Source: Bacilli bacterium (lineage in GTDB: Bacteria; Bacillota_I; Bacilli_A; RFN20; CAG-826). Taken from it: DNA of 64,000 nt. Numbering within the stretch: position 1 is the first letter of the stretch; each line of letters opens with the position of its first letter. The stretch spans positions 44,940 to 108,939 of the forward strand of contig JAFVUY010000130.1 in assembly GCA_017502465.1 (NCBI GenBank). The letters run 5' to 3'. The notes below the pieces were generated by a model. It was not told the origin of the DNA and ran no database searches. It saw only the letters and a program-made list of their open reading frames with translations. A program made the translations under genes and the position numbers. Shown here piece by piece: positions 2,641-32,907 of this stretch.

Positions 2641-4659
2641 TTAAAAATTATAGTCGAGTCTTGCTAGGATATGGTTTTGATATTTTGAATCTAATTCAAC
2701 AAAATATCCACTCCAACCCCAAACTCTAACAATAAGATTAGGATAATTTTCTGGATGTTTTTGAGCGTCCAATAAAGTTTCTTTGTTAATCGCATTTAAT
2801 TGGATTTGGTGGCCACCTAAACCAATAAACGTTTTAACTAACATCGCAACCTTTTTAATACCTTCATCATTTCTAAAAACAGTGTTATGAAGTTCGATTG
2901 TAAATGGGCCTCCGTTAGCAATGTTAGACAAATCATATTTAGTAAATGATTGAATCGCACTTAATAATCCTTGAGTTTTGACATGTAAGGAAGGGGAGAA
3001 GGATGAACTAAATGGATCTTTTGCTTTTCTGCCATCCGCAGTTGCCCCTACTTTCTCCGCGCTTAAAATGTATTCCATCGCGCTGCCGGTGCCTGCTCTA
3101 TAAACACCACCACGTGAATTTTTTCTTCCATTTAAATTAGAAGCAAATGTATCCATAACAAATGATGCAATATCATCTACGTAATCATCGTTATTGCCCA
3201 TCTTAGGAGCGTTAGCGAGTTCGTACCTTAATTGTTCATAGCCATCAAAATCAGAATGTAACGCGTCTAATAATGTTTCTTTTGAAACACTCTTTTCATC
3301 AAAGACTTTTAATTTAATCGCCGCTAATGCGTCTGATGCATTCGCGATACCTGCTCCATGAATTCCATCATTCGCATATTTAGAACCACCATAAAAGTGG
3401 TCTAAACCTCTTTCAATACATGGATTAATAAACATAGACATTAATGGTTCAGGCATATATTTCATATTGTTTCTATGTTCCACTAATGAATCTATTTCTC
3501 TAATTAATTCATCTTTAAAGTGGTCTTTAAATTCTTCAAACGTTTCAGAAGATAATAAATATTTATCTGTGGTTCTTTCGACAATTAATGGGAAATTCAT
3601 TGTTTCAGCGTTTGGTAAATCGCTAGCTAAACCAGAAGTAATTACTTCCCAGCACGCTGCCACACCATAATTAACTGCATCTTCATAGTCGTAACCAAGT
3701 TTTACCATAAACGGTATAACAACATCATCATTAGAATATTGAGGGAATCCTAAACCTTGTTTAGTTAATCTAGTAGCCCTTTCATAGAACTCTAATGGGG
3801 TGTTTTTATTAACTCTCAAATTGATTTTTGGATCAATTAATTTAAGTTCTTCAGAGGCAAATAAACAAATCTCAGTTAGATCAGAGAATACATCATTACC
3901 GTCTTTATCAATTCCACCTAACACCATTGATTGTCCATTGTCGCCTTTTTGAACACCATCATATAAATCTGTGTCGATATTCATTGAAATAAAGAACAAT
4001 TCTGTTAATTCAATTAATTCATCGCGTGAGATGCCTGCTTTAACTGACATATCAAAATAAGGTTTCATATAGACATCAAATCTACCTAATGTAATATGTT
4101 GGATTCTTGCTAAGCGAAGAATAAAAGATAAAAATCTAACGCAAATAAGAGCTTCATAATAATTTGTCGCGCCATTCATAGGAACATTTTCTAAAGCACT
4201 ATATAATTTAATATTATTTTCTTTTTTAGCTAGTTCTTTATATTTATTAACAATGTTTTCACATGACTTTAAACATAATTTCATGCAGTCATATAGTTCA
4301 GATGAGTCTTTATTAATCTCATAATATTTATCGATTTTATTTAAATAACCGTTGATACCGCCTTCTAAGAAAGTCGCATAATCAATAATCATATTTCCTG
4401 AAAATCTAATCGCTCCAGGAATCTTATCAACATGTTCGTCATGTGGGAGTTCTGTGTGATATCTATTAAAACCAAAAATATCATCTCCAAATAATAATGG
4501 AACCTCTCTATCACACGCTAGAGTGAAGAGTTTTGTGGTTTCCATCATAGGTGAGGCGTCTTTTAAAATATCAGTCACATCATATGGAACATTGACACGA
4601 TATTTGTGATAAGCCTTGGAATTAATATAATCTAGTCTATTCTTTACTCTTTCATTCAT
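2641..4659 (-). CDS. Glycyl radical enzyme, PFL-like superfamily, short form, unknown substrate
   Basis: 672 aa. The C-terminal glycyl-radical motif is NLIVRVWGWSGYFVEL (Gly648, nt 2716-2718), followed by a PFL-type tail. The Cys loop is GVAACWEV (Cys336-x-Glu338, nt 3652-3654 for Cys) and the conserved block MGNNDDYVDD is present. A GGAGG RBS lies 8 nt upstream of the ATG at 4659. Confidence 0.85.
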   Translation of the reverse strand: MNERVKNRLDYINSKAYHKYRVNVPYDVTDILKDASPMMETTKLFTLACDREVPLLFGDDIFGFNRYHTELPHDEHVDKIPGAIRFSGNMIIDYATFLEGGINGYLNKIDKYYEINKDSSELYDCMKLCLKSCENIVNKYKELAKKENNIKLYSALENVPMNGATNYYEALICVRFLSFILRLARIQHITLGRFDVYMKPYFDMSVKAGISRDELIELTELFFISMNIDTDLYDGVQKGDNGQSMVLGGIDKDGNDVFSDLTEICLFASEELKLIDPKINLRVNKNTPLEFYERATRLTKQGLGFPQYSNDDVVIPFMVKLGYDYEDAVNYGVAACWEVITSGLASDLPNAETMNFPLIVERTTDKYLLSSETFEEFKDHFKDELIREIDSLVEHRNNMKYMPEPLMSMFINPCIERGLDHFYGGSKYANDGIHGAGIANASDALAAIKLKVFDEKSVSKETLLDALHSDFDGYEQLRYELANAPKMGNNDDYVDDIASFVMDTFASNLNGRKNSRGGVYRAGTGSAMEYILSAEKVGATADGRKAKDPFSSSFSPSLHVKTQGLLSAIQSFTKYDLSNIANGGPFTIELHNTVFRNDEGIKKVAMLVKTFIGLGGHQIQLNAINKETLLDAQKHPENYPNLIVRVWGWSGYFVELDSKYQNHILARLDYNF

Positions 4660-4671
4660 AATATTAGCCTC

Positions 4672-6132
4672 CTACATAATCTTAACATTTATGTTAAATT
4701 TAGAGAAAATCGATGCATAATTATTTTCTTCTACTTGTTTATATTTTTCATCAAAGTCATAGTCCTCTAATAACCAAGAATATTTGCTACCGCTATATTT
4801 GTTATATGGGAGTAGTTCAATATTCTTAACCCCTAATGAATTCATCTTTCTAGCGATTGCTTCTAAATTATTAAAATTATCTATCACTACCGGAATTAAT
4901 GGGGTTCGGGTAATAAATTCAACATTAGAGTCCACTAATGTAGAATAGTTTTCTAATATCCATTCATTAGATACTCCACAGTATTTAATATGGTTAGAGT
5001 TATCTATAATTTTTAAATCGAATAAAACGTAATCTACATATTGAAGAAGTTCTTTAAAAGCTTCGGGTTTAAGATAGCCACATGTTTGTAAAGCGACATG
5101 AACTTTACCTTTTAATCTTTTACAAACTTCTATTAAGAATGAATATTGTAAGGTTGGTTCTCCTCCAGAAAAGGTTACTCCGCCGTTATTCATTTTATAT
5201 ATCTCTTGGTTTTTCAAAATTAAATTAACTAATTCATCCACACTGTAATCATCGCCACATAATTTAATTAAATTTCTAGGACAAGCTTCTTGGCTTTCTT
5301 TAGTTAAAACATATTTATCATTAACCTTAATTGCCTTATCTAAACATTTGTTACATTTTAAACATCCGTTTGGAGATCTAATATATTGCTTTTGAAAGAC
5401 TTTCCCTTCTGGATTATGACACCACTTACAAGAAAGTGGACAGCCTTTTAAAAAGAAAGTGCTTCTAATACCAGGACCGTCATATATTGAAAATTCTTCA
5501 ATAGAAAATATTCTACCTTTTGGAGTATTTGATATACTTAATTCCTTTAAAATTAATTCGGACATTTTCTTATGACCAAAGTAATTTAAATGCATACCAT
5601 CTTCGATAAAACAATTTTCTTTTTCTTGAAAATAATCAATATTTGCAGCGTTATCAATTATTTTAACCCCTAATTTAGATGCGCTTTCACGTAGTAAAGA
5701 ATTAAAATAATTGATCCTATTTCTAATAGAATAATATAAAGGCGAAATAACAGTAGTTAAGACATATATACTTGCATCAGGGAATATACCTCTTAACTTT
5801 TTTAAAAAACAAAGATAATCACTATAAACCTCTTCCGCTTTCGTGTCTTCTTCGTGATGAATATCATTAAAACCAAGATTAACGACAATCTTCTTGAACT
5901 TAGGAAAATAAGTTATTTCATCTAACAAATATAACCAGTCTTTAAATTTTGTAGAACCAACTCCGATATTTAAAGCCTTATGCTTTTCAAACAAAATAAA
6001 AAAGGAATAATCCATATACATTGGAGATTGTCTCAAAAGTTGAAAATATGAATCTCCTATAAATAAAATATCTGGATTAGTTATATCTTTTAAATCTTCG
6101 ATTTCTTCTTTGACTAAATTAAATTTTTTCAT
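4672..6132 (-). CDS. Fusion protein: N-terminal SGNH/GDSL hydrolase domain + C-terminal glycyl-radical-enzyme activating enzyme (radical SAM)
   Basis: The N-terminal ~200 aa carry all the SGNH blocks: FIGDSY (block I), NIGVGS (II), NLGFNDI (III) and EDGMHLN (V). The C-terminal part has the PflA-type DGPGIRSTFFLKGCPLSCKWCHNPEG CxxxCxxC cluster plus the extra Cys-rich insert CLKCNKCLDKA...ACPRN. The track ORF begins with TTG at 6138; the first ATG is at 6132, 3 nt after the GH43 stop. Confidence 0.85.
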   Translation of the reverse strand: MKKFNLVKEEIEDLKDITNPDILFIGDSYFQLLRQSPMYMDYSFFILFEKHKALNIGVGSTKFKDWLYLLDEITYFPKFKKIVVNLGFNDIHHEEDTKAEEVYSDYLCFLKKLRGIFPDASIYVLTTVISPLYYSIRNRINYFNSLLRESASKLGVKIIDNAANIDYFQEKENCFIEDGMHLNYFGHKKMSELILKELSISNTPKGRIFSIEEFSIYDGPGIRSTFFLKGCPLSCKWCHNPEGKVFQKQYIRSPNGCLKCNKCLDKAIKVNDKYVLTKESQEACPRNLIKLCGDDYSVDELVNLILKNQEIYKMNNGGVTFSGGEPTLQYSFLIEVCKRLKGKVHVALQTCGYLKPEAFKELLQYVDYVLFDLKIIDNSNHIKYCGVSNEWILENYSTLVDSNVEFITRTPLIPVVIDNFNNLEAIARKMNSLGVKNIELLPYNKYSGSKYSWLLEDYDFDEKYKQVEENNYASIFSKFNINVKIM

Positions 6133-6134
6133 AA

Positions 6135-6968
6135 TCAAAAATCAAATTTTTCTATGATTAATCTTTCTTTTCCTCTTGGAGAGTTTGGTTTATGACTAAC
6201 TAAACATCTCACATTATTAATATCGATTAACATTCCATGTCCGCGGTCGTCGGAAAACCTTGTGACGTCTTCTTGCTCCCAACCTTTAAAGAGGTTATCG
6301 CTAGTAGCGACCGCAAGAGAATAAGACATATCTTTATCAAATGAAGACCAAATCATTTTATATTTATTGTCTTCTTTAATAACAAATGGTCCATCAGTGA
6401 CAAAACCACCTCTATCATTTTCTCCAACCCATTTTGCATCGGTAGCGTTAAAGATTTTAATAGGTTCGCCTACTCTATGAGTGAGGTCGAGTGATAATTC
6501 TACAACTTTCATTCCTCCATCATGAACTTGTAGCCATTCATGACAGTAAATTAAATATGGAACTCCATTATCAACGAACAAAGTGCCATCTAAGGCTACT
6601 TCATCGCTTGGAGTGATGCTTTCTCCAGTTAAAGGTTTATAAGGACCTAAGATGGTCTTAGAAACAAAAATATAAGTCCCTCTGTTCTTGCCTTCTAATC
6701 TAATAGTCCCGAATAAATAATATTGGTCGTTATATTTATGAATTTCAGGCGCCCAATATTCAAATGAATCCCATTCATCAAAAAGGACATAAGGTCCATA
6801 GAAGTTTTCTAAATCATCGCTTGTATAGCAAAGAAAAGCATCTTGGTCATCAAAGTTTGGAGATAATCTATCTCCTTTGCCTCGAGAACCAGTTAAATAA
6901 TATTTACCATTTTCCTCTATGATAAAAGGATCTCTAATGCATAGTTCGTCTTTACGGTAGTTTCTCAT
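6135..6968 (-). CDS. GH43-like five-bladed beta-propeller glycosidase (cytoplasmic)
   Basis: 277 aa with no signal peptide. It has the GH43-like blocks IRDPFII (catalytic base Asp), YWAPEI and LDGTLFVD. At the usual EGP general-acid position it reads TDGPFV. Confidence 0.65.
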   Translation of the reverse strand: MRNYRKDELCIRDPFIIEENGKYYLTGSRGKGDRLSPNFDDQDAFLCYTSDDLENFYGPYVLFDEWDSFEYWAPEIHKYNDQYYLFGTIRLEGKNRGTYIFVSKTILGPYKPLTGESITPSDEVALDGTLFVDNGVPYLIYCHEWLQVHDGGMKVVELSLDLTHRVGEPIKIFNATDAKWVGENDRGGFVTDGPFVIKEDNKYKMIWSSFDKDMSYSLAVATSDNLFKGWEQEDVTRFSDDRGHGMLIDINNVRCLVSHKPNSPRGKERLIIEKFDF

Positions 6969-6979
6969 AATACTCCTAA

Positions 6980-8272
6980 TTAATTTTCTAAAGACTCTTC
7001 GCTTTCTTTGTCAAAGAGATAGATATAATCATTTTCAAATGAGAAGCTAATTTCTCCTCCTGAAGCGATTTGGGATAGAAGTTCTCCATCTAATCCAATT
7101 AATGGAACTTTAACCGCTAATTTGGTGTCATTTACATTCAAATGTAAATGATATTCAGTGCCCATCATTTCAGACACTAAAATATTGCCTTTAAATGTTT
7201 CTTTATCTTCTAAACCTAATTTGAAATGGTCTGGTCTAATACCAACATATACTTCTTTTTCTTCTGAAATATTTTTCTCTTTTAGTTTAGAAGAAAGGCG
7301 AGAATTTAATTTAACATCTACTCCAAAAACGTTAACGAAATAATGTCCATCTTTAATAATTAATTTTCCATCAAGGAAGTTCATTTGAGGTGTTCCAATG
7401 AAGCTTGCGACAAATTTGTTTTTTGGAGAATTAAATACTTCTGTAGGCGTTCCAACTTGTTGAACCACTCCGTCTTTCATAACGACAATGCGGTCACCTA
7501 ATGTCATAGCCTCAACTTGGTCATGGGTAACATAGATAAATGTTGTATTAATCTTTTTACGTAATAAAATTAACTCCGCGCGCATTTGGTTTCTAAGTTT
7601 TGCGTCTAAGTTAGATAATGGTTCGTCCATTAAGAAGACTTTTGGTTTTCTAACAATCGCTCTTCCAATCGCGACACGTTGTCTTTGACCACCTGAAAGA
7701 TTTTTTGGTTTTCTTTCTAGGTAATCTTCAATTTCAAGGATCGATGCGGCTTCCATAACTTTATCGTCAATTTCTTGGCGGGTATGTTTACGATATTTAA
7801 TAACTTCAACTTTATTTTGTTTCAAATAAGAAATTTCTTCTTGTAATTGTTTGATTTTTTCTTGGTTTTCAGGTTCGTTTTTAATTGTTAATTTAAGTTC
7901 TTTTGTTAAACTTCTAATCTTTTTTCTGTCGATAGCGAAAGCGGTGTATGGAATTTTCTTTAATTTAAGACCAAACGCCATATTATCGTAGACTGTCATA
8001 TGTGGATATAAAGCGTAGTTTTGGAAAACCATCGCGATATCTCTATCTTTTGGTTCTATATCATTAACTAATCTAGATTCAATATAAACTTCTCCACTAG
8101 AGATTTCTTCAAGACCCGCGACCATTCTTAAAGTTGTGGATTTACCACATCCAGAAGGCCCAACAAAAACCACGAATTCCTTATCTTTAATTTCCAAGTT
8201 GAAATCAATAACTGTAGGTTCGCTATTACCTGGATAGTATTTGTAAACATTTTTTAAAATTACGTCCGCCAT
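6980..8272 (-). CDS. Sugar ABC transporter ATP-binding protein (MalK/MsmK/UgpC type) with internal insertion
   Basis: Walker A is GPSGCGKST, the Q-loop is [12 protein letters not shown], the signature is LSGGQRQR and Walker B is [14 protein letters not shown]-terminal regulatory (TOBE-like) domain is present. About 58 extra residues lie between the Q-loop region and the signature motif. Confidence 0.9.
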
Positions 8273-8276
8273 AAGG

Positions 8277-8771
8277 TTAACTCCTTTTTTTCAGTATCCT
8301 TAATTCTTTTTTAGATAAATAAATATAAACAAATGGCATTGGGAGAACAAGTGCCACAAGTAATGTAATAAGTTTTGTGTGTTCTAATTGAAATCTTAAG
8401 AAAAGTTTCAAAGTAGAACTAATAAGTGAGACATAGAAAATCAAACCACAGATAGAAATAACTAAAATCATAATTTCCCAAAGTGGTCCAATCGATTCTA
8501 TTGGGAGATAAATATTTCCCCAAAAGCCATATAGACACGCAAGTGTGACAACAACAGTTAAAACAATAACTGTTCCGGTGTATTTTCTAACAGGAATGGT
8601 AAATACAGAAAATGTTCCACCGACTTTATTAATTAATTGAAAGGCATAGAAGGGCAAAAATGCCTTCCATGCCTTTTCATAGCCTAATTTTTTTAATACA
8701 AAATACGCGCCTATTGAATAATAGTACGAAAATCCTAATATTCCTAAGAAAACAAATAATGTATTAATCAT
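8277..8771 (-). CDS. Small polytopic membrane protein, unknown function
   Basis: 164 aa with four to five hydrophobic helices. It is wedged between the SBP and ATPase genes with 2-4 nt gaps. I recognise no motif. Confidence 0.5.
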
Positions 8772-8773
8772 AA

Positions 8774-10456
8774 TTAGATATCTTTTGCAGCTTCTTTTAA
8801 GTATTGATAAAGTTGATAAACTTCCATTGAATATTTAGAAGTATCTAATAAATATTTATTAACGATATTCATACGATCTTGATGGGAATATGTTTTACAT
8901 GATGTAAAATCACCATGTCCATCGTGAGAATGATCATTAACAAAGTTATATAAACCCGCCCAAATGTTAGATGTAAATGTATACATCGCTTTTCTATTTG
9001 AGAAATGTTTATTTAATTCTTCTTTATTATTTAAATAAAGTAAGTAATCAACTGAATCATTAATTAAATAATTTTCTTTCTTGTTTGCGTTAGCAATCCA
9101 AGATTTTTCTTCTTCAGTGTAACGAGCGTATTGTCTATTGGAAATCAATTGATTTTCGACAAGTGTCAAAATACCTGAATAAGGTTTATTTTCAACACTG
9201 TAACCTTCTGGATAATAATAATTACCGTTATCATCTAAGAAATAATGTGTACCTAAAACACCATAACGGCAAAGGTCATAATTTTCTTGAGAAGAATAGG
9301 CCCAGTTAATGAAAGATAAGATGTCTTTATAATCTTTTGTGTTTTTTGTGATAACAGCACCGAAAGTGGCAACACTGTTTCTCATAAATCCTTTAGATGT
9401 TGAAGAAGAATCTTTTGTCATTGCTTGAAGAACTGTAAATTCCGCATCTGGATTTTGTCTTTTACATAATCTAGCAACTTCGATTAAGTGTTCAACTGTT
9501 GGATTTTCTAAGAAAACACCTGTTTTTTCTGCGACAAAGTCAGCTTCGCAGTCATCGATGTGTTTGTCATCTGGTGATTTTGGAAGAATGCCATTTGCGA
9601 TCCATCTGGATTCAGTATCTAAAACATTAGAATAGTTGGAATCGATAAGTCCACCGATATCTAAAATGTTTTGTCCATTATATGTTCCAATAGATTTTGT
9701 GTAGTATCCTGCTGGAACATCAAAGGCACCTAAAATACCAGTTTTTTCGATTTCATAAATCGCACCACTGATTGTATAAGGCAAATTATAAGTTTCTTTC
9801 ATTGCCAAACACATTTCTTCGAATGTTACATAGTTATCGACAACTTTCCATTCTGGATGGCTAGCATCATAAACATCTGTATATCCACAAGCATTCATCC
9901 AGTCTTTTCTAACTAAAATACCGTATTTGTATGGATTAATAACAGATGGGATACCAATGATTTCATCATTTGATGTGAGTAATCTCGCTTTAGCGTTTAA
10001 AGTCAATGATTCATCTTCATTACTCCAGACCATATTTGCATTTAAATATTCATAGTCTTCAAAGTCATAATATAAATCACGATATAAACCATTTTGCATG
10101 ATCCAGTCATCGATACCGTCGCCACCTCCCGTATGGGAGATGACGATATCGATTTCACCAGTAGTGACATTGTTTGTAATCGTATTTTTCATGTTTTGGG
10201 TGAAAAATTGAGGATTAAATCTAACTTTTTTACCGGTTTCTTCGTAATACTTAGCTTCAACCGCGCGATAGACTTCTTCTTCTAAAGCACCCTTTCTCCA
10301 TGAATATTCAGCAGAACCACCCGCGTAAATAACAATTTCAGTCGCAGGAGTAGTATCAACTGATTCTGAATCTAAACTTTCACTTGTAGGTGTGGTTGGA
10401 CCACAACTAGTCAGCAAGAGGACTAACAATAACGGTATAATTAATTTATTTTTCAT
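8774..10456 (-). CDS. ABC transporter extracellular solute-binding lipoprotein (large, polysaccharide/oligosaccharide type)
   Basis: 560 aa. The signal peptide has a lipobox (LLLTSC followed by G). Size and composition fit LplA-type sugar-binding lipoproteins that pair with LplB/LplC-type permeases. Confidence 0.75.
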   Translation of the reverse strand: MKNKLIIPLLLVLLLTSCGPTTPTSESLDSESVDTTPATEIVIYAGGSAEYSWRKGALEEEVYRAVEAKYYEETGKKVRFNPQFFTQNMKNTITNNVTTGEIDIVISHTGGGDGIDDWIMQNGLYRDLYYDFEDYEYLNANMVWSNEDESLTLNAKARLLTSNDEIIGIPSVINPYKYGILVRKDWMNACGYTDVYDASHPEWKVVDNYVTFEEMCLAMKETYNLPYTISGAIYEIEKTGILGAFDVPAGYYTKSIGTYNGQNILDIGGLIDSNYSNVLDTESRWIANGILPKSPDDKHIDDCEADFVAEKTGVFLENPTVEHLIEVARLCKRQNPDAEFTVLQAMTKDSSSTSKGFMRNSVATFGAVITKNTKDYKDILSFINWAYSSQENYDLCRYGVLGTHYFLDDNGNYYYPEGYSVENKPYSGILTLVENQLISNRQYARYTEEEKSWIANANKKENYLINDSVDYLLYLNNKEELNKHFSNRKAMYTFTSNIWAGLYNFVNDHSHDGHGDFTSCKTYSHQDRMNIVNKYLLDTSKYSMEVYQLYQYLKEAAKDI

Positions 10457-10474
10457 AATAATTACCGCCGTTTA

Positions 10475-12220
10475 TTAAAATGAAGCTTTATGATATTGAA
10501 GATTGTCAACGTAGATGGTATTTTTAGGAGCCACTATGGAAAGATTACAATAACCAGCTCCACTAAAATCAGCAGTTAACCAATAAGAAATATCATAAGT
10601 AACAGTTAACCATGTGTCAGCTGGAACATTTTCTCCTTGAGTAATTTCTGTTCCATCAAGAGATAATTTAATTTGTGTAGAGAATGTTCCTCCATTAAAG
10701 CCGTTATAAGCAGCGCCTGCTTCGACTAAATGAGTTATTTGAGTAGTGGAAGGTCTAGATTGTAATCTAAGTGAAGCTCCAGTTGGAACATAAATATCAA
10801 ATGATATAGAAGAAATGTGTTGTTGTCTTACATAGGACCAAACATAATACCATGCATTTGCACCATTACCTGCGTTAGCTGGAGAGCCATTAGAAACAGA
10901 GAAATTAGCATCTATTTGATCTTTATAGGTTCCTGTTCCAGTAAAGGCATAACTACTTGTTCTGCCGCCAACATCATTAGAGTGTGGTCCAAATGTACCA
11001 ACATGATCAAGTAAAGTCGTTCCGTTATAAACATGTCCCCATACAAATTCTTCGTCCATTGTATCAATTGGGGCCGTATGCCAATATCTTAAATTGGATA
11101 AATAAATATCTCCTTTAGGTGTTGCTATTTCAGAACACGCAAATGTTGTAGTGTAAGGCCATGTTTCTCTATTGATGTAAGAGTAGTTGAATGAGACGGT
11201 ATACCATTGTTCAGCCTCAACTTTAGTGACTGGAACATTGTCCTTATAAATGAGAATGTCACTATTATTGCCATAAGTTATTGTGGAGCCAATGGATAAA
11301 CCAAAACCTTTATTAGCAACTTGCGTAGCAGATGGTCCGTATAGTCTTAATTGAGCGCCTGCTTTTAAATAAATATCAAATGTTATGTAATTAATATCGT
11401 AGTCGGAAATGTTGTCAGCATAAGCTCTTCCTGATTCGGTAACTAAACTTGGTTCAACCTTGTTGTTCCAGTTATTGTAGTCGTTTGCACCTTCGATTTT
11501 AATTGTGTTAGCAACTCCACCAATATCAACAGTTTGTTTTGTTAAAGTTAATGTAGAGTTTGTTTTTGGAACAACAATGAATTCGCCATTTCTATAGGTG
11601 TTAAATCCGTTTGGATCAACTCTTACTTCTGTGTAGTCACAGTATTGACATTTCCAAACTCTATCTTCGTCTGTACCATTTAAAACTGTTTCTTCTGTTT
11701 CTAAAAGATTGTGTTCTGTTTCAAATGAATGTAAGCAAGCATAAACTAAGGTAATTTCTTCAATTGTTGTTTCACTTAAAGCAACTAAAGAAATATAGTT
11801 ACCACATAAGGTAAGTTGAACCCCACTTGTGACTGAATAAGTTGTGACTTCTCCAGTTTCTTCAAATCTTGTTTCAACATTTAAAGAACCTTCGAATGTA
11901 ACATTGACGCATTCAAGCCCTAATGCTTCTTCAACTTTTGTAATTGCACCTCCTGCATCAAGTGTGCATAGTTTGTCTACCGCTGCTTTAACCTTTGTAT
12001 AAGTGTATTGGGAATGAGTTCCCCCAGCGATAATAGAATCAACATAAGTTGTTGAATCTGTAGGAGCATCAGCTTTGTCTAAAACCTCTGTGTAAACAGA
12101 TTCTGGGTCTTGGTTAGCGTTAACAAAATAACCATCAAAATTAATGGCTGCACCACTTATGATAGTGGCGCAAAAAGCGACGAAACCCAACAAAGTTAAT
12201 ACTGTTAGTTTTTTAGCCAT
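10475..12220 (-). CDS. Secreted/anchored protein with two copies of an uncharacterised CBM-like beta-sandwich module
   Basis: 581 aa with an N-terminal hydrophobic signal or anchor (LTVLTLLGFVAFCATIISGAA). There are two internal modules. One ends ..QWYTVSFNYSY..GDIYLSNLRYWH and the other ends ..TWLTVTYDISY..NTIYVDNLQYHKASF. Confidence 0.6.
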   Translation of the reverse strand: MAKKLTVLTLLGFVAFCATIISGAAINFDGYFVNANQDPESVYTEVLDKADAPTDSTTYVDSIIAGGTHSQYTYTKVKAAVDKLCTLDAGGAITKVEEALGLECVNVTFEGSLNVETRFEETGEVTTYSVTSGVQLTLCGNYISLVALSETTIEEITLVYACLHSFETEHNLLETEETVLNGTDEDRVWKCQYCDYTEVRVDPNGFNTYRNGEFIVVPKTNSTLTLTKQTVDIGGVANTIKIEGANDYNNWNNKVEPSLVTESGRAYADNISDYDINYITFDIYLKAGAQLRLYGPSATQVANKGFGLSIGSTITYGNNSDILIYKDNVPVTKVEAEQWYTVSFNYSYINRETWPYTTTFACSEIATPKGDIYLSNLRYWHTAPIDTMDEEFVWGHVYNGTTLLDHVGTFGPHSNDVGGRTSSYAFTGTGTYKDQIDANFSVSNGSPANAGNGANAWYYVWSYVRQQHISSISFDIYVPTGASLRLQSRPSTTQITHLVEAGAAYNGFNGGTFSTQIKLSLDGTEITQGENVPADTWLTVTYDISYWLTADFSGAGYCNLSIVAPKNTIYVDNLQYHKASF

Positions 12221-12318
12221 AATATAAACCTCCTTTTGTTAATTATGGTGTTAGTATTTTTAATTTCGACTAACTCGAAATATGTTGATAATTTATTATT
12301 AAGCCAAAGGCTTAAAAC

Positions 12319-15300
12319 CTAGTTGATTGAATCATGATAATATCTAATATCTGAGATATAACATGTTCCTTTGATATAGGCTAATTCGTGGCATGTATAG
12401 CCGCTTTTGTATTGACTTTCAAAGTTAGAATAATCAACGACGAGTCGATACCATGTATTAGCGTTAATTGTTGTGACCTCATCTCCGCTAGCGGTATAAA
12501 GATTAATATTTTCGTTGTTAGCAGAACTAAATGATGCGTTAACAGTAAGAGGAACTGTAGAGTGACCTCCATTTGGATTAACTGAAGCTGCTCTTAAATA
12601 AGTGCCTGGTGTTAATAAAATCCAATATTCAATAAAATCAATGTGACCGTTAATAATATTGTTTTTGCTACTTGCTGTAGAGGTGTGTTTGGTGTCAGAT
12701 ATATCTAATTTGTTGTTCCAGCTCGCAGCGGCAGCGGAGTATGCATATGGGTTACTAATTCCTTCAATAACTCCACTAACTTGAGAGTAGCTAGCAGGAT
12801 AAGTTGTATCTATAGAAGTGAATTCAAATGAGCCTTTTCTATATTTATTAAAGACATTAACTTTGAGGATTTGATGTTCGCTATTATCTGGGAGACTAAC
12901 TTTAATTTCTGCATCCCCCTCTTTCATAGCGGTAACCAAATTACCATCTAAGGAAACAAATTCTTCACCTGAAACAATTTCATAATTTAAGGCAGATGGA
13001 TTAATAAATTGTTTGTTAAATATCGCATATGGTTGAATTAAGTATTCTTTTTCAAAATAATCTTTATCGCCCGCGTATAAGGAGATGTTAGATTCAGTTA
13101 AAGAAAGCATATAATTGTTTTTAATAACAATTGAGATAGATTCTCTAATTTTGTAATCGCCATGTGTGATAACAAAACTGATGCTTATATCGCCAACTTC
13201 TTTAAGCAAAATTTCGCTTCCGCCTAAATAATCAACTTTTCTATTAGAGAAGATAAATCCAGAGATATTAGGGTTTTTAATAGCTTCTCCGTTATAGATA
13301 ACTGAGATTTGTTTCTTAAGATTGATAGTGTCTCCAACAAATCCAATATCAATATTGTCCACGAGCACCTTGAATGGAGCGTTATATGAATAATCTTTGA
13401 TATAGGAATTGTCTTTGTAATATGCAAATTCACCTATTTCAAAAACTGTATTTAAAGCGCTGGAAAGATATGTGGAATCATTAACCCTTCCATCGACCTT
13501 TACAACTACTGTACATAATTCGTCTTTGACGATTGTTTTAATAGGTTTTCCATCTTTATAGATAGAAACAAAATTATTTGGTTTAAAGTTATTATCTAAA
13601 CTTATTGTTTTAATTCCGTTTACAAAGTCATTAAAGTAAGAAAGTAATGGGGTGCCACTCCTATAAATATAGGAGAAGGCTAAATATTTATATCCTTTAT
13701 TAACCGCTAAACCATTTAATAAGTTATAAGCATTGATTTTGCTTCTTGATTCTCTATCTAATGCTTTTGCGTTTGAGGAATCATATTTATATAAATTAGA
13801 TGCTTCATCGTGTGTATAAGAAACATAGTTTGGAGAATAAACAACCATTTCATTTTCGGAGGTTGCTTTGTTAGGATTTTCGCCATCAATGGTTAATTCT
13901 CTTTCATCTGTATCAAAAACTAATTCAATATCATTAAGTGGAGAATAGTCGAAATAATAACGAATATTATCAAAATAAGAGACGTCTCCGATATAGCAAG
14001 GGCCAACATAAAGAGTAGCGGCGTCTTGTCCGATTGTCATAGATTTCAAAACAACTTCTGAAATGTTGATGTAGACTGTGTACCATTGATCGTTAGTTAA
14101 TATGTTTGTTGCTTTGCCTTCTTGATTGACTAATAACATATCAGTTCTATTGACTTGAACTTCGTTATAGAAATATTGCTTTGCAGGCGCTCCATAGGCT
14201 CCCATTAAGATACCTTTTTGTCCTAAGTAATAATAATCAAAGGATAAAAGTGTGTAGCCTTTTTCTACCATATAATCATAGGCGACAACGCCGTTTTTAT
14301 TTGTAGTTTCAAAGAACTCAATTCTTGAATCCCATGTAGCCCATGTAGGATTTGCAGCGTTTTTGTTCATATCGTGGTCTGTAATTTTGTATTTATAAGC
14401 ATTTGAATGTCCTTCAAATTCTTCATAACCAAACTCGATATCCGCGCGGAAAGTTTCAACAATTTCTTCGTGTGATAATTTAGCTTCGAAATTTGGATGA
14501 AGTCTAATTGTTGTTTTCGTGCTTACTTCTGGTTTTTCAATACAATAAACACTGACTTCATAAGAGAGCACTTCTTCACCTTTATATTGATTGATGACAC
14601 TAACTCTATTACCATCGCTAGATAAATATGGGTTAATGCCTAAATCCACTCCAACATTACCATCGAATGATTCGCCTCTTACAAAAATTTGGGCATTAAT
14701 ATCGACGTAATTTTTTCTCCTAGGAGAGGTTTCATCAACTGAATAAACATCATAAGATTCTTGGTCAAGGACAATTGAGTTTTCACTTTGAATTGTCGCG
14801 GTGAATTTCTTGCTCTTTAATGTTTTGTTTTTCCAAACACCGTTAACTTCAATATCAACTTCGCCTTCTTTAACACCTATGAATTGTCCATTTGTGTTAA
14901 CTGTAGCGATAGAGGTGTCTAAGCTTGTTAAGGTATAGTTTTCAAGAGGATAATAGTTTCCGTCATATCTAACTTCAACAACCGGAGTAACTGGAGTATT
15001 GACAAAACCTAAACAATCAGCAACTGAGATTGATGGATTAATCATTTGGTTCTTTATAGAGACTTCACATGTATCTTTTTCTTTGCCATGACTAACAGTA
15101 ATAGTTAATTCACCAACTTTACCTAAACAAGACATATGTCCGTTATTATCAATTGTCGCTAAAGTGGTGTCTGAAGAAGACCATGTATATTCAAGTTCTT
15201 CATTATAGTTAGTCAAAACAAAATCATATTCTGCATAAATGTCTACAGTGACATTGCTTTTTTCTAATTCTGGTTTATTAGAAGCGAAAACTTCGAAATA

Positions 15301-15381
15301 AGAAGAATTGTCAAAAGCGCTGATAGAGGCAAAAGAAACAGCCCCTAGACATGTAAGAAATAAAAATAGTTTGTTTTTCAT
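12319..15381 (-). CDS. Large secreted surface protein: Big_2 Ig-like domains + the same CBM-like modules
   Basis: 1020 aa with signal peptide MKNKLFLFLTCLGAVSFASISA. Big_2-type segments include WSSSDTTLATIDNNGHMSCLGKVGELTITV, SLDTSIATVNTNGQFIGVKEGEVDIEV and VSLDGNLVTAMKEGDAEIKV. Module ends are QWYTVYINISE..SYFDNIRYYF and TWYRLVVDYSNF..CYISDIRYYH. Confidence 0.7.
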   Translation of the reverse strand: MKNKLFLFLTCLGAVSFASISAFDNSSYFEVFASNKPELEKSNVTVDIYAEYDFVLTNYNEELEYTWSSSDTTLATIDNNGHMSCLGKVGELTITVSHGKEKDTCEVSIKNQMINPSISVADCLGFVNTPVTPVVEVRYDGNYYPLENYTLTSLDTSIATVNTNGQFIGVKEGEVDIEVNGVWKNKTLKSKKFTATIQSENSIVLDQESYDVYSVDETSPRRKNYVDINAQIFVRGESFDGNVGVDLGINPYLSSDGNRVSVINQYKGEEVLSYEVSVYCIEKPEVSTKTTIRLHPNFEAKLSHEEIVETFRADIEFGYEEFEGHSNAYKYKITDHDMNKNAANPTWATWDSRIEFFETTNKNGVVAYDYMVEKGYTLLSFDYYYLGQKGILMGAYGAPAKQYFYNEVQVNRTDMLLVNQEGKATNILTNDQWYTVYINISEVVLKSMTIGQDAATLYVGPCYIGDVSYFDNIRYYFDYSPLNDIELVFDTDERELTIDGENPNKATSENEMVVYSPNYVSYTHDEASNLYKYDSSNAKALDRESRSKINAYNLLNGLAVNKGYKYLAFSYIYRSGTPLLSYFNDFVNGIKTISLDNNFKPNNFVSIYKDGKPIKTIVKDELCTVVVKVDGRVNDSTYLSSALNTVFEIGEFAYYKDNSYIKDYSYNAPFKVLVDNIDIGFVGDTINLKKQISVIYNGEAIKNPNISGFIFSNRKVDYLGGSEILLKEVGDISISFVITHGDYKIRESISIVIKNNYMLSLTESNISLYAGDKDYFEKEYLIQPYAIFNKQFINPSALNYEIVSGEEFVSLDGNLVTAMKEGDAEIKVSLPDNSEHQILKVNVFNKYRKGSFEFTSIDTTYPASYSQVSGVIEGISNPYAYSAAAASWNNKLDISDTKHTSTASSKNNIINGHIDFIEYWILLTPGTYLRAASVNPNGGHSTVPLTVNASFSSANNENINLYTASGDEVTTINANTWYRLVVDYSNFESQYKSGYTCHELAYIKGTCYISDIRYYHDSIN

Positions 15382-17090
15382 AAGGTGTAATCTCCTTTAT
15401 GTATTAAGTTTTCGAAGTTCTTTAAAATGTTTTTCGCTTTTTCTTTTCTTTTGAAAATGTCTTTGTTATTGAAGTCAATTTCTTCAAAGAATCTTATAAA
15501 TTCTTTTTCTTTAGATTGACCAATTACTTCAACGTTATGGAAGTAATTATCAATAAATTGATAATCTCTCATCATTTTAATCGTGAATTTAATGTCGTTA
15601 TCTTTTAAGGAATAAAAGACATTATTAATATAGGTATGAGAGAAACAATATGTGCTTTCATCTTCTGTATTGATAACACTTTGACCTTTAATATCTCCGT
15701 TAATAAAGACAACGTTATCTTTAAATAAGGCGTGATCGCTTTCTCTAGCGATGGTTAAGAAAGCAGAACGAGTAGGATTTTCTTTTTGTCCGTTATTTAA
15801 GAAATAGTTGTTATAAATAACATTGTTAAACCATCTTCCAGTTATTTTTTCTTTAACAATTTCACCTTTTTCATCTAAGACTTCTCTTCCAAATTCATCA
15901 CGCTTAATAACTTGGGTAGCGAGGTTACAAATAAGAAGCCCTCCACCTTCGTTATGATGCGCGTAATTGTTTTGGAAAATAGTCTTAACACAGCAATTGT
16001 CTAAATCAAATCCTTGTCCATCTTCTGAACCACTTCTTTTATATGTGTAAGCTGCTTCGTTTAATTCAAATAAACAAACATCAACGTTATAAACCCAGAT
16101 AGAAGCGTTCCAATAACCTTTTCTACCTAGATAATTTGCAAAATAGCAGGTGTTGCCTTTGATATAGACGTTTTTCGCACTGGAAATAACAATCCCATCT
16201 GCTCCTGGACATTCAACATAATTATCTAAACAATAAATTCCATCAGATATAAAATAGCCAACGCCTGTTTCATAATTGTTTTCGCTTTCATAAGAAACCC
16301 ATTTGTTATATCCATATCCAACACCTGGTTTATCAACCCATTTGTTATAAACAGTGATTCCAGTTCTAGAAACGTTTTTAACAATGTTATTTACAATCCA
16401 AATGTTTTTAAATTCACTTGGTCCTATCTCGTTATGAGCGATAATACCTCCATAATAACGATAGAAATATCTTCCTTTTGTAACTCCATCTTCTTCATAT
16501 TCTGGAGTAACTTTTTCTAAATCTAATGTGTCTGGATTTACTAAAGAAGAATCTAATTCGTTTTCCCAAATCCAGTTGATATCATGGACATAACAATTTT
16601 TAACAACAATATTTTTCATCTCGCCTTTATGAGGGGTTGTAATATGAATTCCTCTATAAGCTTTAGTTCCTGTTACTTCGATAGAATCAACGATTACATT
16701 TGAATTATTGATTCTAATAACAGAGTCATCTCCGTTGATGACTGGTAATTTTCCTTCTCCGTAACTTCCTAAATAAGTTAGTAAATTGTCACTATTTCTT
16801 TCGAGTAAAATATTCCCCATAAATGTTGAATTTTTCTTTAAAAGGATTGCAATATTAACGTCTTTTGAAAGAATTTGAGGAATTTTTGTTAATGTTTTTA
16901 TTGGAGTATTTTTTGAAAGTCCGTCATTTGAATCGTTACCTAAAACACTATCAATGTAATAAATTTGATAGTTATTAAGATTAACTTCTTCCATCTTTCT
17001 TTCTCTAAGAGAGTAGATGGTTTCTACATCTTGCTTAGAAAGAAGTTCATCTTTATTTAAGATAAATCCGTGTTCAAATGAATGTTTCAT
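15378..17090 (-). CDS. Right-handed parallel beta-helix protein (pectate-lyase-fold), cytoplasmic paralogue
   Basis: 570 aa with no signal peptide. It is collinear with the next gene, sharing the blocks YIDSVLGNDSNDG, YGEGKLPVINGDD, CYVHDINW, GVGYGYNKW, ETGVGYF and YAHHNEGGGLLICN. Confidence 0.7.
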   Translation of the reverse strand: MKHSFEHGFILNKDELLSKQDVETIYSLRERKMEEVNLNNYQIYYIDSVLGNDSNDGLSKNTPIKTLTKIPQILSKDVNIAILLKKNSTFMGNILLERNSDNLLTYLGSYGEGKLPVINGDDSVIRINNSNVIVDSIEVTGTKAYRGIHITTPHKGEMKNIVVKNCYVHDINWIWENELDSSLVNPDTLDLEKVTPEYEEDGVTKGRYFYRYYGGIIAHNEIGPSEFKNIWIVNNIVKNVSRTGITVYNKWVDKPGVGYGYNKWVSYESENNYETGVGYFISDGIYCLDNYVECPGADGIVISSAKNVYIKGNTCYFANYLGRKGYWNASIWVYNVDVCLFELNEAAYTYKRSGSEDGQGFDLDNCCVKTIFQNNYAHHNEGGGLLICNLATQVIKRDEFGREVLDEKGEIVKEKITGRWFNNVIYNNYFLNNGQKENPTRSAFLTIARESDHALFKDNVVFINGDIKGQSVINTEDESTYCFSHTYINNVFYSLKDNDIKFTIKMMRDYQFIDNYFHNVEVIGQSKEKEFIRFFEEIDFNNKDIFKRKEKAKNILKNFENLIHKGDYTL

Positions 17091-17092
17091 AA

Positions 17093-18997
17093 CTATTTAT
17101 AAAACGCTCCTAAGTAAGGTAATAATCCTGTATCAACGCCCAAATAATCGTATTGAAGTTGAACTGGTAATTTTCTTGCGTATTCAAGTAAGGATGTAGA
17201 TGGAACAAATGTCTTTGAAACATCATATCCGTCATAATCATTTGGTAAAGTAAAATCCAATTGAGCGTCTAAAATCGCGTAAGCGTCATCGCTTAAAACA
17301 AGTTCACTTTGGATTTCATTACCGTCTTGAATGTTATGGTATAAATTACCTTCAAAAACAGGATCTAAGATTGTGTAATTTGCGAAAATTGGTTTTGCTT
17401 CTTCCGCATAAGAATAGAAAATGTTGTTTCTATAAATATGATTACGAGAAACTTTTGAATCTTCGCAGTTAATAATGTGTTGTTTTTCAATGTCTCCTCT
17501 AACTAGGACTGTGTTGTTTTCAGCGACAAAATCATCGCATTGTCTTGCAAGAGTAATAAACGCACTTCTATGTGAGTTTGTTTCGATACCGTTAAAGGCA
17601 AAGACATTGTTACGACAGTAATTGTTTTTCCAAATACCAAGTAATGACTGTTTTGAGGTATTCGCTAAAGTGCCGTCGATATTATATGTAAATAATGATG
17701 AGGTGTTATTACATAGTAATAAACCACCACCTTCATTATGATGAGCGTAGTTATAATAGAAATGGATATCTTCACACGCGATATCAATATCAAATCCTTC
17801 TCCATCTCCCGCACCGTGTTGAAGATATGTATAGGCCGCTTCGTTATAAAGCATATAACCACCTCTAACGTTATGTACCCAAATACCCGCGTTGAAATAG
17901 CCGCCTTTACCTAAATAAGATGCTTTGTAGGATGTGTTTCCAACAATCCAGGCGCCATCCGTGCCATCAACAACAATACCATCGCCACCTGTGCATAAGG
18001 TAAAGTTGTCTTTAACAACAACGTTCGTATATGGGAAATAACCAACTCCGGTTTCAAAGTTTTGATAATCAGGGTTTTCTGGAACATATTTGTTATATCC
18101 ATAACCAATTCCGCCTCTATTGACCCAATAATTGTAGAAGTTAATACCAATATGCGAGACGTTTTCAATTCTATTATTCTCTACGAAAACGTGGTCATAT
18201 GTAATAGGGCCAGCTTTAATAGAAGCTTCAACATCAATCGTTCCATTAAAGAATTCAATTCCTCCATAAAGACGACGATATCTTAAAACTCTATTTGTAG
18301 GTGTAACATTTTCAGGATTAATGTCTTTTGGATGTGTTTCGTTTGGACTTAAAGGATATTCCCAGTTCCAGTTGACATCGTGGACATAGCAACCTTTAAT
18401 AACGATGTTTTTATAAACACCAGATTTACGAGGTAATACATAAATACCTCTTGTGCAGGCTGGGCCTGTAATTTCAATATTATAGACGCGAGTGTTTTCT
18501 TCTCTAATCCATAAAATCGCGTTTGTAGTGACTGTAGAGTCATCTCCATCACCATGAATAACAGGCATATCACCTTCACCATAAGCATCTAAAATAAATG
18601 GATATTCTTCACTAGAGGTGTATCCAGTTAAAATTAGGTTTCCATAAAAATAGGAACCTCTTTTTAATAAGATTCTAATTGGGGAGAAATCCGCATAAGT
18701 AGAAATAATTGTTTCAACACTGCTAAGAGTTTTTTTAGGAGTGATTGGATCAAGACCTGTATTTGAATCATTGCCAAAAAGGGAATCGATATAGAATGTT
18801 CTATAGATGTTATTAATAACATCTTCGCTTATATCTTCATAAGTAGGTGCACTAGGTATGTTATAGACACCCGTTTCAACTTCTGGTTCTATAGACTCCG
18901 TTGTTGATTCAGTGTCAGAAGAATTAAAAAATCCAGTTGTCGTGCAAGAGACAAGTGATAGAGCTAATAAAGGGAATAATAGTAATGATTTTTTCAT
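17093..18997 (-). CDS. Right-handed parallel beta-helix protein, lipoprotein paralogue
   Basis: I prefer the start at ATG 18997 (MKKSLLLFPLLALSLVSC lipobox, GAAAGGA RBS) over the track start at 19069, which overlaps the permease gene. Shared blocks are YIDSLFGNDSNTG, YGEGDMPVIHGDGDD, CYVHDVNW, GIGYGYNKY, ETGVGYF and YAHHNEGGGLLLCN. Confidence 0.75.
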   Translation of the reverse strand: MKKSLLLFPLLALSLVSCTTTGFFNSSDTESTTESIEPEVETGVYNIPSAPTYEDISEDVINNIYRTFYIDSLFGNDSNTGLDPITPKKTLSSVETIISTYADFSPIRILLKRGSYFYGNLILTGYTSSEEYPFILDAYGEGDMPVIHGDGDDSTVTTNAILWIREENTRVYNIEITGPACTRGIYVLPRKSGVYKNIVIKGCYVHDVNWNWEYPLSPNETHPKDINPENVTPTNRVLRYRRLYGGIEFFNGTIDVEASIKAGPITYDHVFVENNRIENVSHIGINFYNYWVNRGGIGYGYNKYVPENPDYQNFETGVGYFPYTNVVVKDNFTLCTGGDGIVVDGTDGAWIVGNTSYKASYLGKGGYFNAGIWVHNVRGGYMLYNEAAYTYLQHGAGDGEGFDIDIACEDIHFYYNYAHHNEGGGLLLCNNTSSLFTYNIDGTLANTSKQSLLGIWKNNYCRNNVFAFNGIETNSHRSAFITLARQCDDFVAENNTVLVRGDIEKQHIINCEDSKVSRNHIYRNNIFYSYAEEAKPIFANYTILDPVFEGNLYHNIQDGNEIQSELVLSDDAYAILDAQLDFTLPNDYDGYDVSKTFVPSTSLLEYARKLPVQLQYDYLGVDTGLLPYLGAFYK

Positions 18998-19002
18998 ATT
19001 TG

Positions 19003-19965: not shown

Positions 19966-19966
19966 A

Positions 19967-30377: not shown

Positions 30378-30406
30378 AGTTTTAAACTCCTTTAAAATTT
30401 ATTACA

Positions 30407-32848: not shown

Positions 32849-32907
32849 ATTATACCTCCAGCATTATGAACTAAAATTAAAAGCTGGTTTACCAAAAAAG
32901 ATTAAGA

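Follow-up and report, generated by a model that had tools for sequence, protein, structure and literature searches.

A compact clade of glycyl radical enzymes in gut bacteria that probably acts on sugar-derived molecules

Glycyl radical enzymes (GREs) give strict anaerobes access to reactions that would otherwise need oxygen or vitamin B12, and newly assigned members have exposed gut metabolism of choline to trimethylamine, of hydroxyproline, of sulfonates to H2S and of anhydro-sugars. Here we analyse an unusually short GRE encoded in a 64,000-nucleotide stretch of DNA from a Bacilli bacterium (assembly GCA_017502465.1, contig JAFVUY010000130.1, positions 44,940 to 108,939 of the forward strand), which we call the window and number from its first nucleotide. 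An initial annotation, made from the letters of the window, had noted this enzyme in a sugar locus, an observation that our analysis confirms as a whole. Its interpretation survives in part: a real compact GRE with a Cys-x-Glu loop does sit in sugar loci, but the proposed N-terminal truncation does not hold, and a sugar role now has a precedent. Judging from the sugar-degrading genes beside it and its own active-site signature, the compact clade to which the enzyme belongs probably carries out a hitherto undescribed radical reaction, independent of oxygen, on a molecule derived from a sugar.

The closest described enzymes are GREs that retain the Cys-x-Glu motif, a feature of the 1,2-eliminases and isomerases (PMC13450708). 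A June 2026 review lists six C–O eliminases, CutC, three C–S lyases and three isomerases including YbiW and PflD, covers the decarboxylases, succinate synthases and formate-lyases as well, and leaves whole clades without an assignment (PMC13450708). The best sequence and fold matches of the window protein are the glycerol dehydratase (GD) of C. butyricum (1r8w) and the propanediol dehydratase (PD) of R. inulinivorans (5i2a/5i2g; 9rco), at E 4e-79 and template-modelling (TM) scores of 0.81–0.89. It shares with them the barrel, the Cys-x-Glu loop, the Gly loop and the type of activase, but is only 20–28% identical, is about 115–170 residues shorter, and has a loop five residues shorter than that of GD before the strand that bears GD Tyr339. 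HypD (6vxc) and CutC (5fau) likewise share the fold and the loop (TM 0.81–0.89), although no proline or choline context surrounds the compact GRE. PflD and YbiW (8id0, 8yjo, 8id7), the only characterised sugar-acting GREs, also carry the loop; they isomerise 1,5-anhydromannitol-6-phosphate and 1,5-anhydroglucitol-6-phosphate to 1-deoxyfructose-6-phosphate (PMC13450708). Their substrates are phosphorylated, whereas no such context is seen at compact GRE loci. The suggestion that the window enzyme acts on a carbohydrate-derived substrate fits the sugar context found across its family, but such a role is not without precedent, as these anhydro-hexitol 6-phosphate isomerases demonstrate (PMC13450708).

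The window protein is a genuine GRE with a Cys-x-Glu loop (Table 1). Its gene begins with ATG and comprises 672 codons, and both of the Pfam profiles proposed as a check match: PFL-like (PF02901; residues 87–525, E 6.5e-94, profile positions 157–638 of 647) and Gly_radical (PF01228; residues 551–654, E 2.5e-21). The glycyl radical motif around Gly648, previously read as intact, agrees exactly with the published GRE fingerprint RVxG[FWY]x6-8[IL]x4Qx2[IV]x2R, and its first part, R645 to F653, is invariant in 46 of 46 members of the compact-family alignment, as are Cys336, Trp337 and Glu338 of the Cys loop. The MGNNDDYVDD block, pointed out earlier together with that loop, is present from residue 487. 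The Cys-Cys pair of the formate-lyases is absent; the protein has Ala335-Cys336. We also observed that Trp337, invariant between the catalytic Cys and Glu, stands where most canonical GREs have Val, and that the family-specific Trp647 and Trp649 (RVWGW) flank the radical Gly at positions that are mostly Ala and Tyr in canonical GREs.

This enzyme is an intact member of a compact clade, of ~660–690 residues, of pyruvate formate-lyase (PFL)-like GREs that is widespread in gut and rumen bacteria. The identical protein is encoded on three assembled contigs, one of them a metagenome scaffold of ruminant-gut style that is evidently where the window comes from. Scanning a single genome for each species returned ~30 loci with full-length relatives (query 1–672, 40–62% identity, ~655–700 residues), beyond which identity falls sharply to ~30% and alignments start at query residue ~88; these weaker matches are ordinary GREs. 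A protein search with query residues 1–420 gave over 100 clusters (90% identity); almost all have 656–693 residues, and public sources annotate them only as 'pyruvate formate-lyase'. When 1.84 billion representatives were searched with a profile, 2,367 GRE clusters had E<1e-30, among which ~30 clusters (50% identity) match the profile end to end. The clade is common in Clostridia of human, ruminant and other animal guts and has a cultured carrier, Acetatifactor aquisgranensis DSM 110981 (locus L011). A separate observation concerns two loci (L086:88-3691 and L087:1-3294) in which a cassette of activase, GRE and DUF4867 genes, its GRE 62% identical to that of the window, adjoins Rep_trans, HTH and serine recombinase genes, which suggests that the cassette is carried on a mobile element.

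Being 90–180 residues shorter than characterised GREs, the protein could be read as a decaying or non-catalytic remnant of a longer enzyme. We give this reading almost no credence and regard it as effectively refuted by conservation. The same length is kept in more than 100 clusters, the catalytic residues and many other positions are invariant across the 46-member alignment, and the activase is retained. The ratio of nonsynonymous to synonymous substitution (dN/dS) against an 83%-identical homologue is ~0.10 (dN 0.127; dS 1.29, near saturation), and an AlphaFold2 model reaches a pLDDT of 91.1 and a pTM of 0.92. Conserved length, purifying dN/dS and a confident model together argue that the protein is no relic, and the earlier concern that it might prove unfoldable and pseudogene-like is answered by the same model. 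Overlaid on known GREs as had been proposed, the model superposes on GD, PD, CutC, HypD, PflD and YbiW with query TM scores of 0.81–0.90 at 20–28% identity (Foldseek).

The compact GRE is clearly shorter than every characterised PFL-like GRE; it has 115 residues fewer than GD (787 residues). The length distribution of the superfamily is not bimodal: the profile search returned many GREs of 700–750 residues without characterisation. The expectation that 100–180 N-terminal residues are missing was not borne out. We aligned the compact family with 47 canonical (755–860 residues) and 34 mid-length representatives using MAFFT; at such low identity the boundaries are approximate. In this alignment the canonical N-terminus is matched by residues 1 to ~63. 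A gap of ~63 residues then falls between residues 63 and 80 (canonical ~70–150), inside the helical N-terminal part, and five loops farther on are 6, 11, 4, 15 and 5 residues shorter; internal loops account for ~45 of the missing residues. As aligned, the shortness is not a simple N-terminal truncation; the deficit is spread over an internal N-terminal gap and loops. The helices before the barrel form the conserved dimer interface of GREs (PMC13450708), and because this region is reduced, the canonical dimer could be altered and the compact family may dimerise differently. At ~670 residues the enzyme may be near the minimal GRE scaffold, which would make it useful for probing the roles of the N-terminal helices and the dimer.

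By sequence measures the compact family belongs to no assigned GRE family. The window protein reaches no NCBIfam equivalog threshold, missing them 3- to 4-fold: it scores 308 bits against a cutoff of 1100 for HypD, 291 against 1109 for NF007437 (PflD-type) and 258 against 1050 for CutC, and the HypD, CutC, HpsG/HpfG, IAD and HPAD models as a group give 170–308 bits against cutoffs of 1000–1150. For TIGR01774, the GD/PD-type subfamily, the score is 333 bits against 678, and for TIGR01255 (PFL) it is 84 against 994. By profile comparison, GD (387 bits), PD (363) and PflD (362) are nearest and about equally close; the decarboxylases (183–231), succinate synthases and PFL are farther away than the eliminase and isomerase GREs. 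No enzyme in the June 2026 review matches the family in length, signature or model score (PMC13450708), and our literature searches found no publication on it. A characterised family of the same length, which would have undercut the novelty first proposed, did not emerge from these comparisons.

The active site, mapped through sequence alignments at 20–28% identity, sets the family apart. Position 89 is Asn in 46 of 46 compact members but His in 44 of 47 canonical representatives; the corresponding GD His164 is proposed to protonate the leaving hydroxyl, and His is found in PD (His166) and PflD too. GD Asp447, in the His-Asp that follows the Cys loop, corresponds to Pro349-Asn350, GD Tyr640 (Tyr in PflD too) to Gly525, and GD Gln636 to Arg521, all invariant in the compact family, and the position of GD Ser282 is deleted. 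PflD, with a loop (FPTGYT) equal in length to the one that corresponds to GDNGQS, keeps the His (GQGHIIIDY), the His-Asp and the Tyr where the compact family has Asn, Pro-Asn and Gly. The best PDB matches led us to consider an assignment as glycerol or propanediol dehydratase, but because His164, Asp447 and Tyr640 are replaced, we do not claim membership of the diol dehydratases. The Cys-x-Glu loop, earlier taken as the dehydratase/lyase type, is indeed there, but it does not on its own assign a dehydratase role: the compact family has an invariant Asn where the dehydratases of glycerol, propanediol and hydroxyproline have their general-acid His.

The reading we favour, with moderate confidence, is that of a functional Cys-x-Glu-type GRE, an eliminase or isomerase, that acts on a glycan-derived sugar or polyol. 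Each step of the mechanism we propose is drawn by homology; what the analysis shows is that the enzyme has, and conserves, the residues, the fold and the partner such a mechanism requires. The adjacent radical S-adenosylmethionine (SAM) activase would take a hydrogen from Gly648 to leave a stable glycyl radical, which during turnover would move to Cys336. The resulting thiyl radical would take a hydrogen from a hydroxyl-bearing carbon of the substrate, Glu338 would deprotonate the hydroxyl, and the ketyl radical so formed would expel or migrate a group on the neighbouring carbon (C–O or another C–X bond), before the hydrogen came back from Cys336. The outcome would be a 1,2-elimination or a ring-opening isomerisation, as for GD, PD, CutC, YbiW and PflD.

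The substrate is most likely a small polyhydroxylated molecule derived from a glycan, such as a free pentose, hexose, ketose, deoxysugar or polyol, and in the lineage of the window it may be released after O-deacetylation. The change of His to Asn, Gly523 and Gly525, together with the invariant Asp240, Asn241, Gln237, Gln243, Asn350, Arg521, Lys278 and His188, suggests a C5–C6-sized substrate, a larger polar pocket and a different handling of the leaving group than in known dehydratases. The product is probably a keto or aldehyde compound, with reduction or phosphorylation to follow elsewhere; neighbouring genes for Fe-alcohol dehydrogenases and a xylulokinase-type kinase would fit such later steps. 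Pocket size and polarity, leaving-group chemistry and the order of the pathway are what we infer here from residues and gene content. Among individual sugars, L-arabinose was considered as a unifying substrate, on the basis of glycoside hydrolase (GH) families GH43, GH51 and GH127, a beta-L-arabinopyranosidase-like GH36, an AraA-like isomerase and a XylB-type kinase; these are suggestive but cover less than half of the loci, and we set the proposal aside. The idea of myo-inositol, from raffinose-synthase-like GH36 neighbours and the IolB/IolD-like context of one sister protein (P0390, below), is speculative.

The carbohydrate context described for the window holds family-wide across the 33 loci of our neighbourhood survey. 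A cognate activase adjoins the GRE in 28 of them, an AraC regulator lies next to it in 14 and a LacI regulator in three. Raffinose-synthase-like GH36 enzymes are found in 8 of the 33 loci, a second GH36 whose best model is beta-L-arabinopyranosidase in three, and GH43, GH51 or GH127 arabinofuranosidases in six; some loci have GH78 rhamnosidases, GH35, GH2, GH88 or GH94. Sugar ATP-binding cassette (ABC) importers, DUF4886 and GDSL esterases, and DUF4867 also recur. DUF4867 (structure, PDB 9gyy) is a cupin metalloprotein; according to a 2025 study its genes mostly accompany fucose-isomerase-family and FGGY genes in aldose/ketose clusters, and they also occur in sulfoglycolysis clusters (PMC11968277). 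In a Candidatus Limivicinus metagenome-assembled genome (L013:870-12536) the order is Fe-alcohol dehydrogenase, CUT2-like monosaccharide ABC importer, LacI, activase, GRE and a kinase that passes the xylulokinase model TIGR01312 (486 bits against a cutoff of 380). A prevalent Ruminococcaceae lineage (L093:7519-14086, 24 contigs) has two HAD phosphatases, activase, GRE, a short convergent DUF1934 gene and Fe-alcohol dehydrogenase, so that the dehydrogenase accompanies the GRE in two unrelated arrangements (L013; L093/L094). In keeping with the earlier remark that the setting is not a microcompartment, we found no bacterial microcompartment (BMC) shell gene in 39 loci (661 kb), by a coarse check with a PduA query, and no aldehyde dehydrogenase or phosphotransacylase in the loci annotated gene by gene.

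The window adds a feature of its own. The activase is adjacent and of the radical-SAM type, as had been noted, but it is not a simple dedicated activase: it is the C-terminal part of a fusion with an acetylesterase-like SGNH domain (open reading frame (ORF) at 4672–6138(-), 488 residues; gene callers start it at 486 residues). Its C-terminal 284 residues resemble PFL-activating enzyme (PFL-AE) and other TIGR02494 activases, with the CX3CX2C motif (C233x3C237x2C240) and one auxiliary four-Cys motif (C259/C262/C265/C286), all of whose Cys residues are invariant; the difference lies in the N-terminal SGNH domain. There the GDS (Ser30), GxND and DGMH blocks are intact, and FIGDSYF, NLGFND and DGMHLN are conserved in the three fusion clusters and all fusion homologues. 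In a model of the fusion (pLDDT 86), Foldseek matches the activase half to PFL-AE (3cb8, TMt 0.85) and the other half to platelet-activating factor acetylhydrolase Ib, a Phocaeicola sialate O-acetylesterase and the acetyl-xylooligosaccharide esterase Axe2. Among the best 120 of 7,945 matching activases, three 90%-identity clusters contain the fusion and the others are listed as ~281-residue stand-alone proteins; the fusion is found in independent assemblies and persists to 61% identity. With separate SGNH esterase genes adjoining the GRE in two other arrangements, such esterases occur with compact GREs in three unrelated settings. We found no earlier description of an esterase–activase fusion in the literature, and neither 'fusion' nor 'fused' occurs in the text of the 2026 GRE review (PMC13450708). 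As a Rosetta-stone link, the fusion would tie predicted O-deacetylation to the GRE pathway.

Several other reactions deserve consideration beside a sugar or polyol eliminase or isomerase. The enzyme might be a short-chain diol dehydratase for 1,2-propanediol, glycerol or ethylene glycol, serving as a redox sink in which a diol from fucose, rhamnose or a pentose becomes an aldehyde that Fe-alcohol dehydrogenase reduces. The closest solved structures are the B12-independent glycerol dehydratase and propanediol dehydratase, the window contains FucI and a GH29 fucosidase (28572–34125), relatives have GH78 rhamnosidases nearby, and Fe-alcohol dehydrogenase genes are adjacent in L013 and L093/L094. 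We nevertheless think this unlikely, for the invariant replacements (His164 by Asn89, His-Asp447 by Pro-Asn350, Tyr640 by Gly525, with the Ser282 position deleted) remove dehydratase hallmarks, no NCBIfam dehydratase model is reached, the annotated loci lack BMC shell, aldehyde dehydrogenase and phosphotransacylase genes, and the window contains no fuculokinase, aldolase or lactaldehyde reductase. Also improbable is lyase activity on an anionic sugar derivative (a phosphate, sulfosugar, sulfate ester or uronate), with Arg521 and Lys278 binding the leaving or anchoring group; if the group that leaves is itself a good anion, the enzyme would not need the general-acid His, which would fit the replacement of this His by Asn. 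Both basic residues are invariant and family-specific, the C–S lyases IslA, IseG and HpsG anchor the sulfonate through Arg residues (PMC13450708), DUF4867 (SftX) occurs in sulfoglycolysis clusters (PMC11968277), the GRE of L093 has HAD phosphatases as neighbours, and GH88 is present in L019. In HypD, however, the residue equivalent to Arg521 is also Arg and has no obvious part in binding an anion, and the ABC importers bring in unphosphorylated sugars while kinases are rare neighbours. Most DUF4867 members lie outside sulfo-contexts (PMC11968277), largely in aldose/ketose settings, GH31 occurs in only two loci, and neither a sulfite reductase nor an exporter nor sulfoglycolysis genes turned up around the GRE; a sulfosugar C–S lyase in particular was set aside.

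Least plausible among these reactions is direct cleavage of a glycosidic or ester bond by radical beta-elimination, in which removal of a hydrogen from C2 would drive out the aglycone at C1 and leave an anhydro-ketose; the enzyme would then be a radical equivalent of glycoside hydrolases or lyases and would not work on free sugars. Such chemistry would mirror that of YbiW and PflD, where a hydrogen is taken from C2 and the C1–O bond breaks (PMC13450708), Gly at positions 523 and 525 suggests space for a larger ligand, and the GRE is co-located with many GH families; yet the argument is a pure chemical analogy, GRE active sites are buried (PMC13450708), and the monosaccharide-type importer and kinase of L013 favour a monosaccharide-sized substrate, so that we consider this very unlikely. 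Eliminase or isomerase action on a free sugar or polyol has weaknesses of its own. The neighbours of the compact GRE are heterogeneous and indicate no single sugar, many loci consist of regulator, activase and GRE only, and in the Ruminococcaceae lineage the genes sit among housekeeping genes. The active-site mapping comes from alignments at low identity and not from inspected coordinates, and loss of the general-acid His could mean a chemistry outside the eliminase and isomerase types. Finally, sister clades lie in polysaccharide-biosynthesis loci, so the signature alone is no indicator of catabolism.

Those sister clades extend the picture. The signature (N, D, N/T, W-E, N, R/K, W) recurs in GREs of 700–745 residues at 28–39% identity, so the short family is the compact end of a larger clade without an assigned function. 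One such protein, P0390 (719 residues; L088:8001-10160), is flanked by a GH4 gene on one side and by SIS, PfkB and GatZ-like genes on the other, and IolB-like (KduI), IolD-like (TPP) and LacI genes are upstream; we note that this locus resembles an inositol or ketose pathway with a GRE in place of a missing step. P0394 lies downstream of a SorC-type sugar regulator. P0387 (L090:1641-3869) and P0416 (L092:3130-5262), of 710–742 residues, are found with activases inside polysaccharide-biosynthesis loci that contain GT4 glycosyltransferases, a pyruvyl transferase, a Wzx-type flippase, UDP-galactopyranose mutase and a nucleotide-sugar (NDP-sugar) epimerase/dehydratase, a setting that hints at radical chemistry in the biosynthesis of sugar nucleotides or glycans. 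The theme shared by the compact family and its sisters is carbohydrate chemistry, not catabolism alone. More tentatively, at a confidence well short of even, we suggest that the whole clade of 660–745 residues (Asn89, Asp240, Trp337, Asn350, Arg/Lys521, RVWG) is a new functional class of GRE that carries out radical transformation of unphosphorylated sugars, ketoses, cyclitols or sugar nucleotides without a His general acid, in gut glycan catabolism and, in the sister clades, polysaccharide (deoxysugar) biosynthesis. Candidate reactions are dehydration or deoxygenation, or cleavage of a ring C–O bond.

That unassigned GRE clades exist was expected, and sugar-acting GREs are already known; the added interest here lies in the replaced general acid, the compact scaffold, the esterase–activase fusion and the spread into biosynthetic loci. 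The catalytic residues of the compact clade differ from those of all assigned GREs, and assigning it could reveal a radical step in the fermentation of plant or host glycans, or a new redox sink. The cultured A. aquisgranensis strain makes questions about the compact GRE directly testable.

Table 1. Positions of the compact GRE, its motifs and the genes around it in the window
Feature	Position	Strand	Basis
Compact glycyl radical enzyme, 672 aa (PFL-like barrel and glycyl radical domain)	2641..4659	-	ORF, Pfam, AlphaFold2, Foldseek
Glycyl radical fingerprint, aa 645–667 = RVWGWSGYFVELDSKYQNHILAR; radical site Gly648	2659..2727	-	Regex match
Cys loop YGVAACWEVITS, with A-A-C336-W337-E338; thiyl radical Cys and catalytic Glu	3646..3660	-	Aligns with GD C433-V-E435
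Asn89 codon, at the position of the general-acid His (GD His164)	4393..4395	-	Alignments to GD, PD, PflD
Shine–Dalgarno AGGAGG, 8 nt before the GRE ATG; overlaps the activase stop codon	4668..4673	-	Sequence scan
GRE-activating radical-SAM domain, aa ~205–488 of the fusion	4675..5526	-	TIGR02494, 251 bits vs cutoff 174
SGNH/GDSL acetylesterase-like domain, N-terminus of the activase, aa ~24–200	5539..6069	-	PF13472, 38.2 bits vs cutoff 32.9
GH43 glycoside hydrolase	6135..6968	-	Pfam PF04616, E 1.2e-31; its end runs 4 nt into the activase ORF
Rest of the co-directional array	6980..25074	-	ORF spacing; Pfam, NCBIfam and PDB matches
Divergent AraC-family regulator	25212..26084	+	Pfam HTH_18, HTH_AraC

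In the window itself, the GRE is the last of 16 co-directional genes that run from 25074 to 2641 with gaps of at most 18 nt or overlaps, apart from one gap of 98 nt. This agrees with its description in the initial annotation as the terminal gene of a glycan-utilisation operon, as the array includes the GH43 gene, parts of an ABC importer, SGNH esterases and GH136-like proteins. Upstream of the GH43 gene are a MalK-like ABC ATPase, a small membrane protein, a lipoprotein that is likely a binding protein, two ABC permeases, 581-residue and 1020-residue (Big_2) proteins, a GDSL-like protein, a WbsX-like protein and a divergent sugar isomerase of the AraA/FucI/SftI type. The GRE had been credited with the strongest ribosome-binding site in the region; its Shine–Dalgarno sequence is as reported, but the site is tied and not the sole strongest, since AGGAGG also precedes the gene at 10475–12220. 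A terminator scan 3' of the GRE found no terminator.

Some further genes of the window are of interest in their own right. Two large proteins of the array (15378–19069(-); 570 and 658 residues) have no Pfam match and resemble GH136 lacto-N-biosidases only weakly and over local stretches; divergent glycosidases of the beta-helix kind are a possible identity. One of the ABC permeases (19967–21820(-), 617 residues) matches BPD_transp_1 from residue ~409, leaving ~400 N-terminal residues unexplained; as its ORF start is the first possible start codon, this extra N-terminus may be partly overcalled. Between the AraC regulator and a RhuM-family gene lies a 298-residue protein (26371–27267(-)) with an N-terminal HTH_3 domain and acyltransferase-like hexapeptide repeats. 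A separate cluster upstream of the operon (28572–34125(-)) encodes the GH29 alpha-L-fucosidase, a GH38 alpha-mannosidase and a bona fide L-fucose isomerase, the FucI mentioned above (NF008220, 1055 bits). At the other end of the window, beyond a convergent LrgAB pair, a DUF4886 protein (299–1027(-)) is SGNH-like with a GNSFS motif and has a PDB relative described as a 'hypothetical protein' (4i8i); homologues of this protein are encoded within the GRE operon itself in three other loci of the family (L015, L016 and L018).

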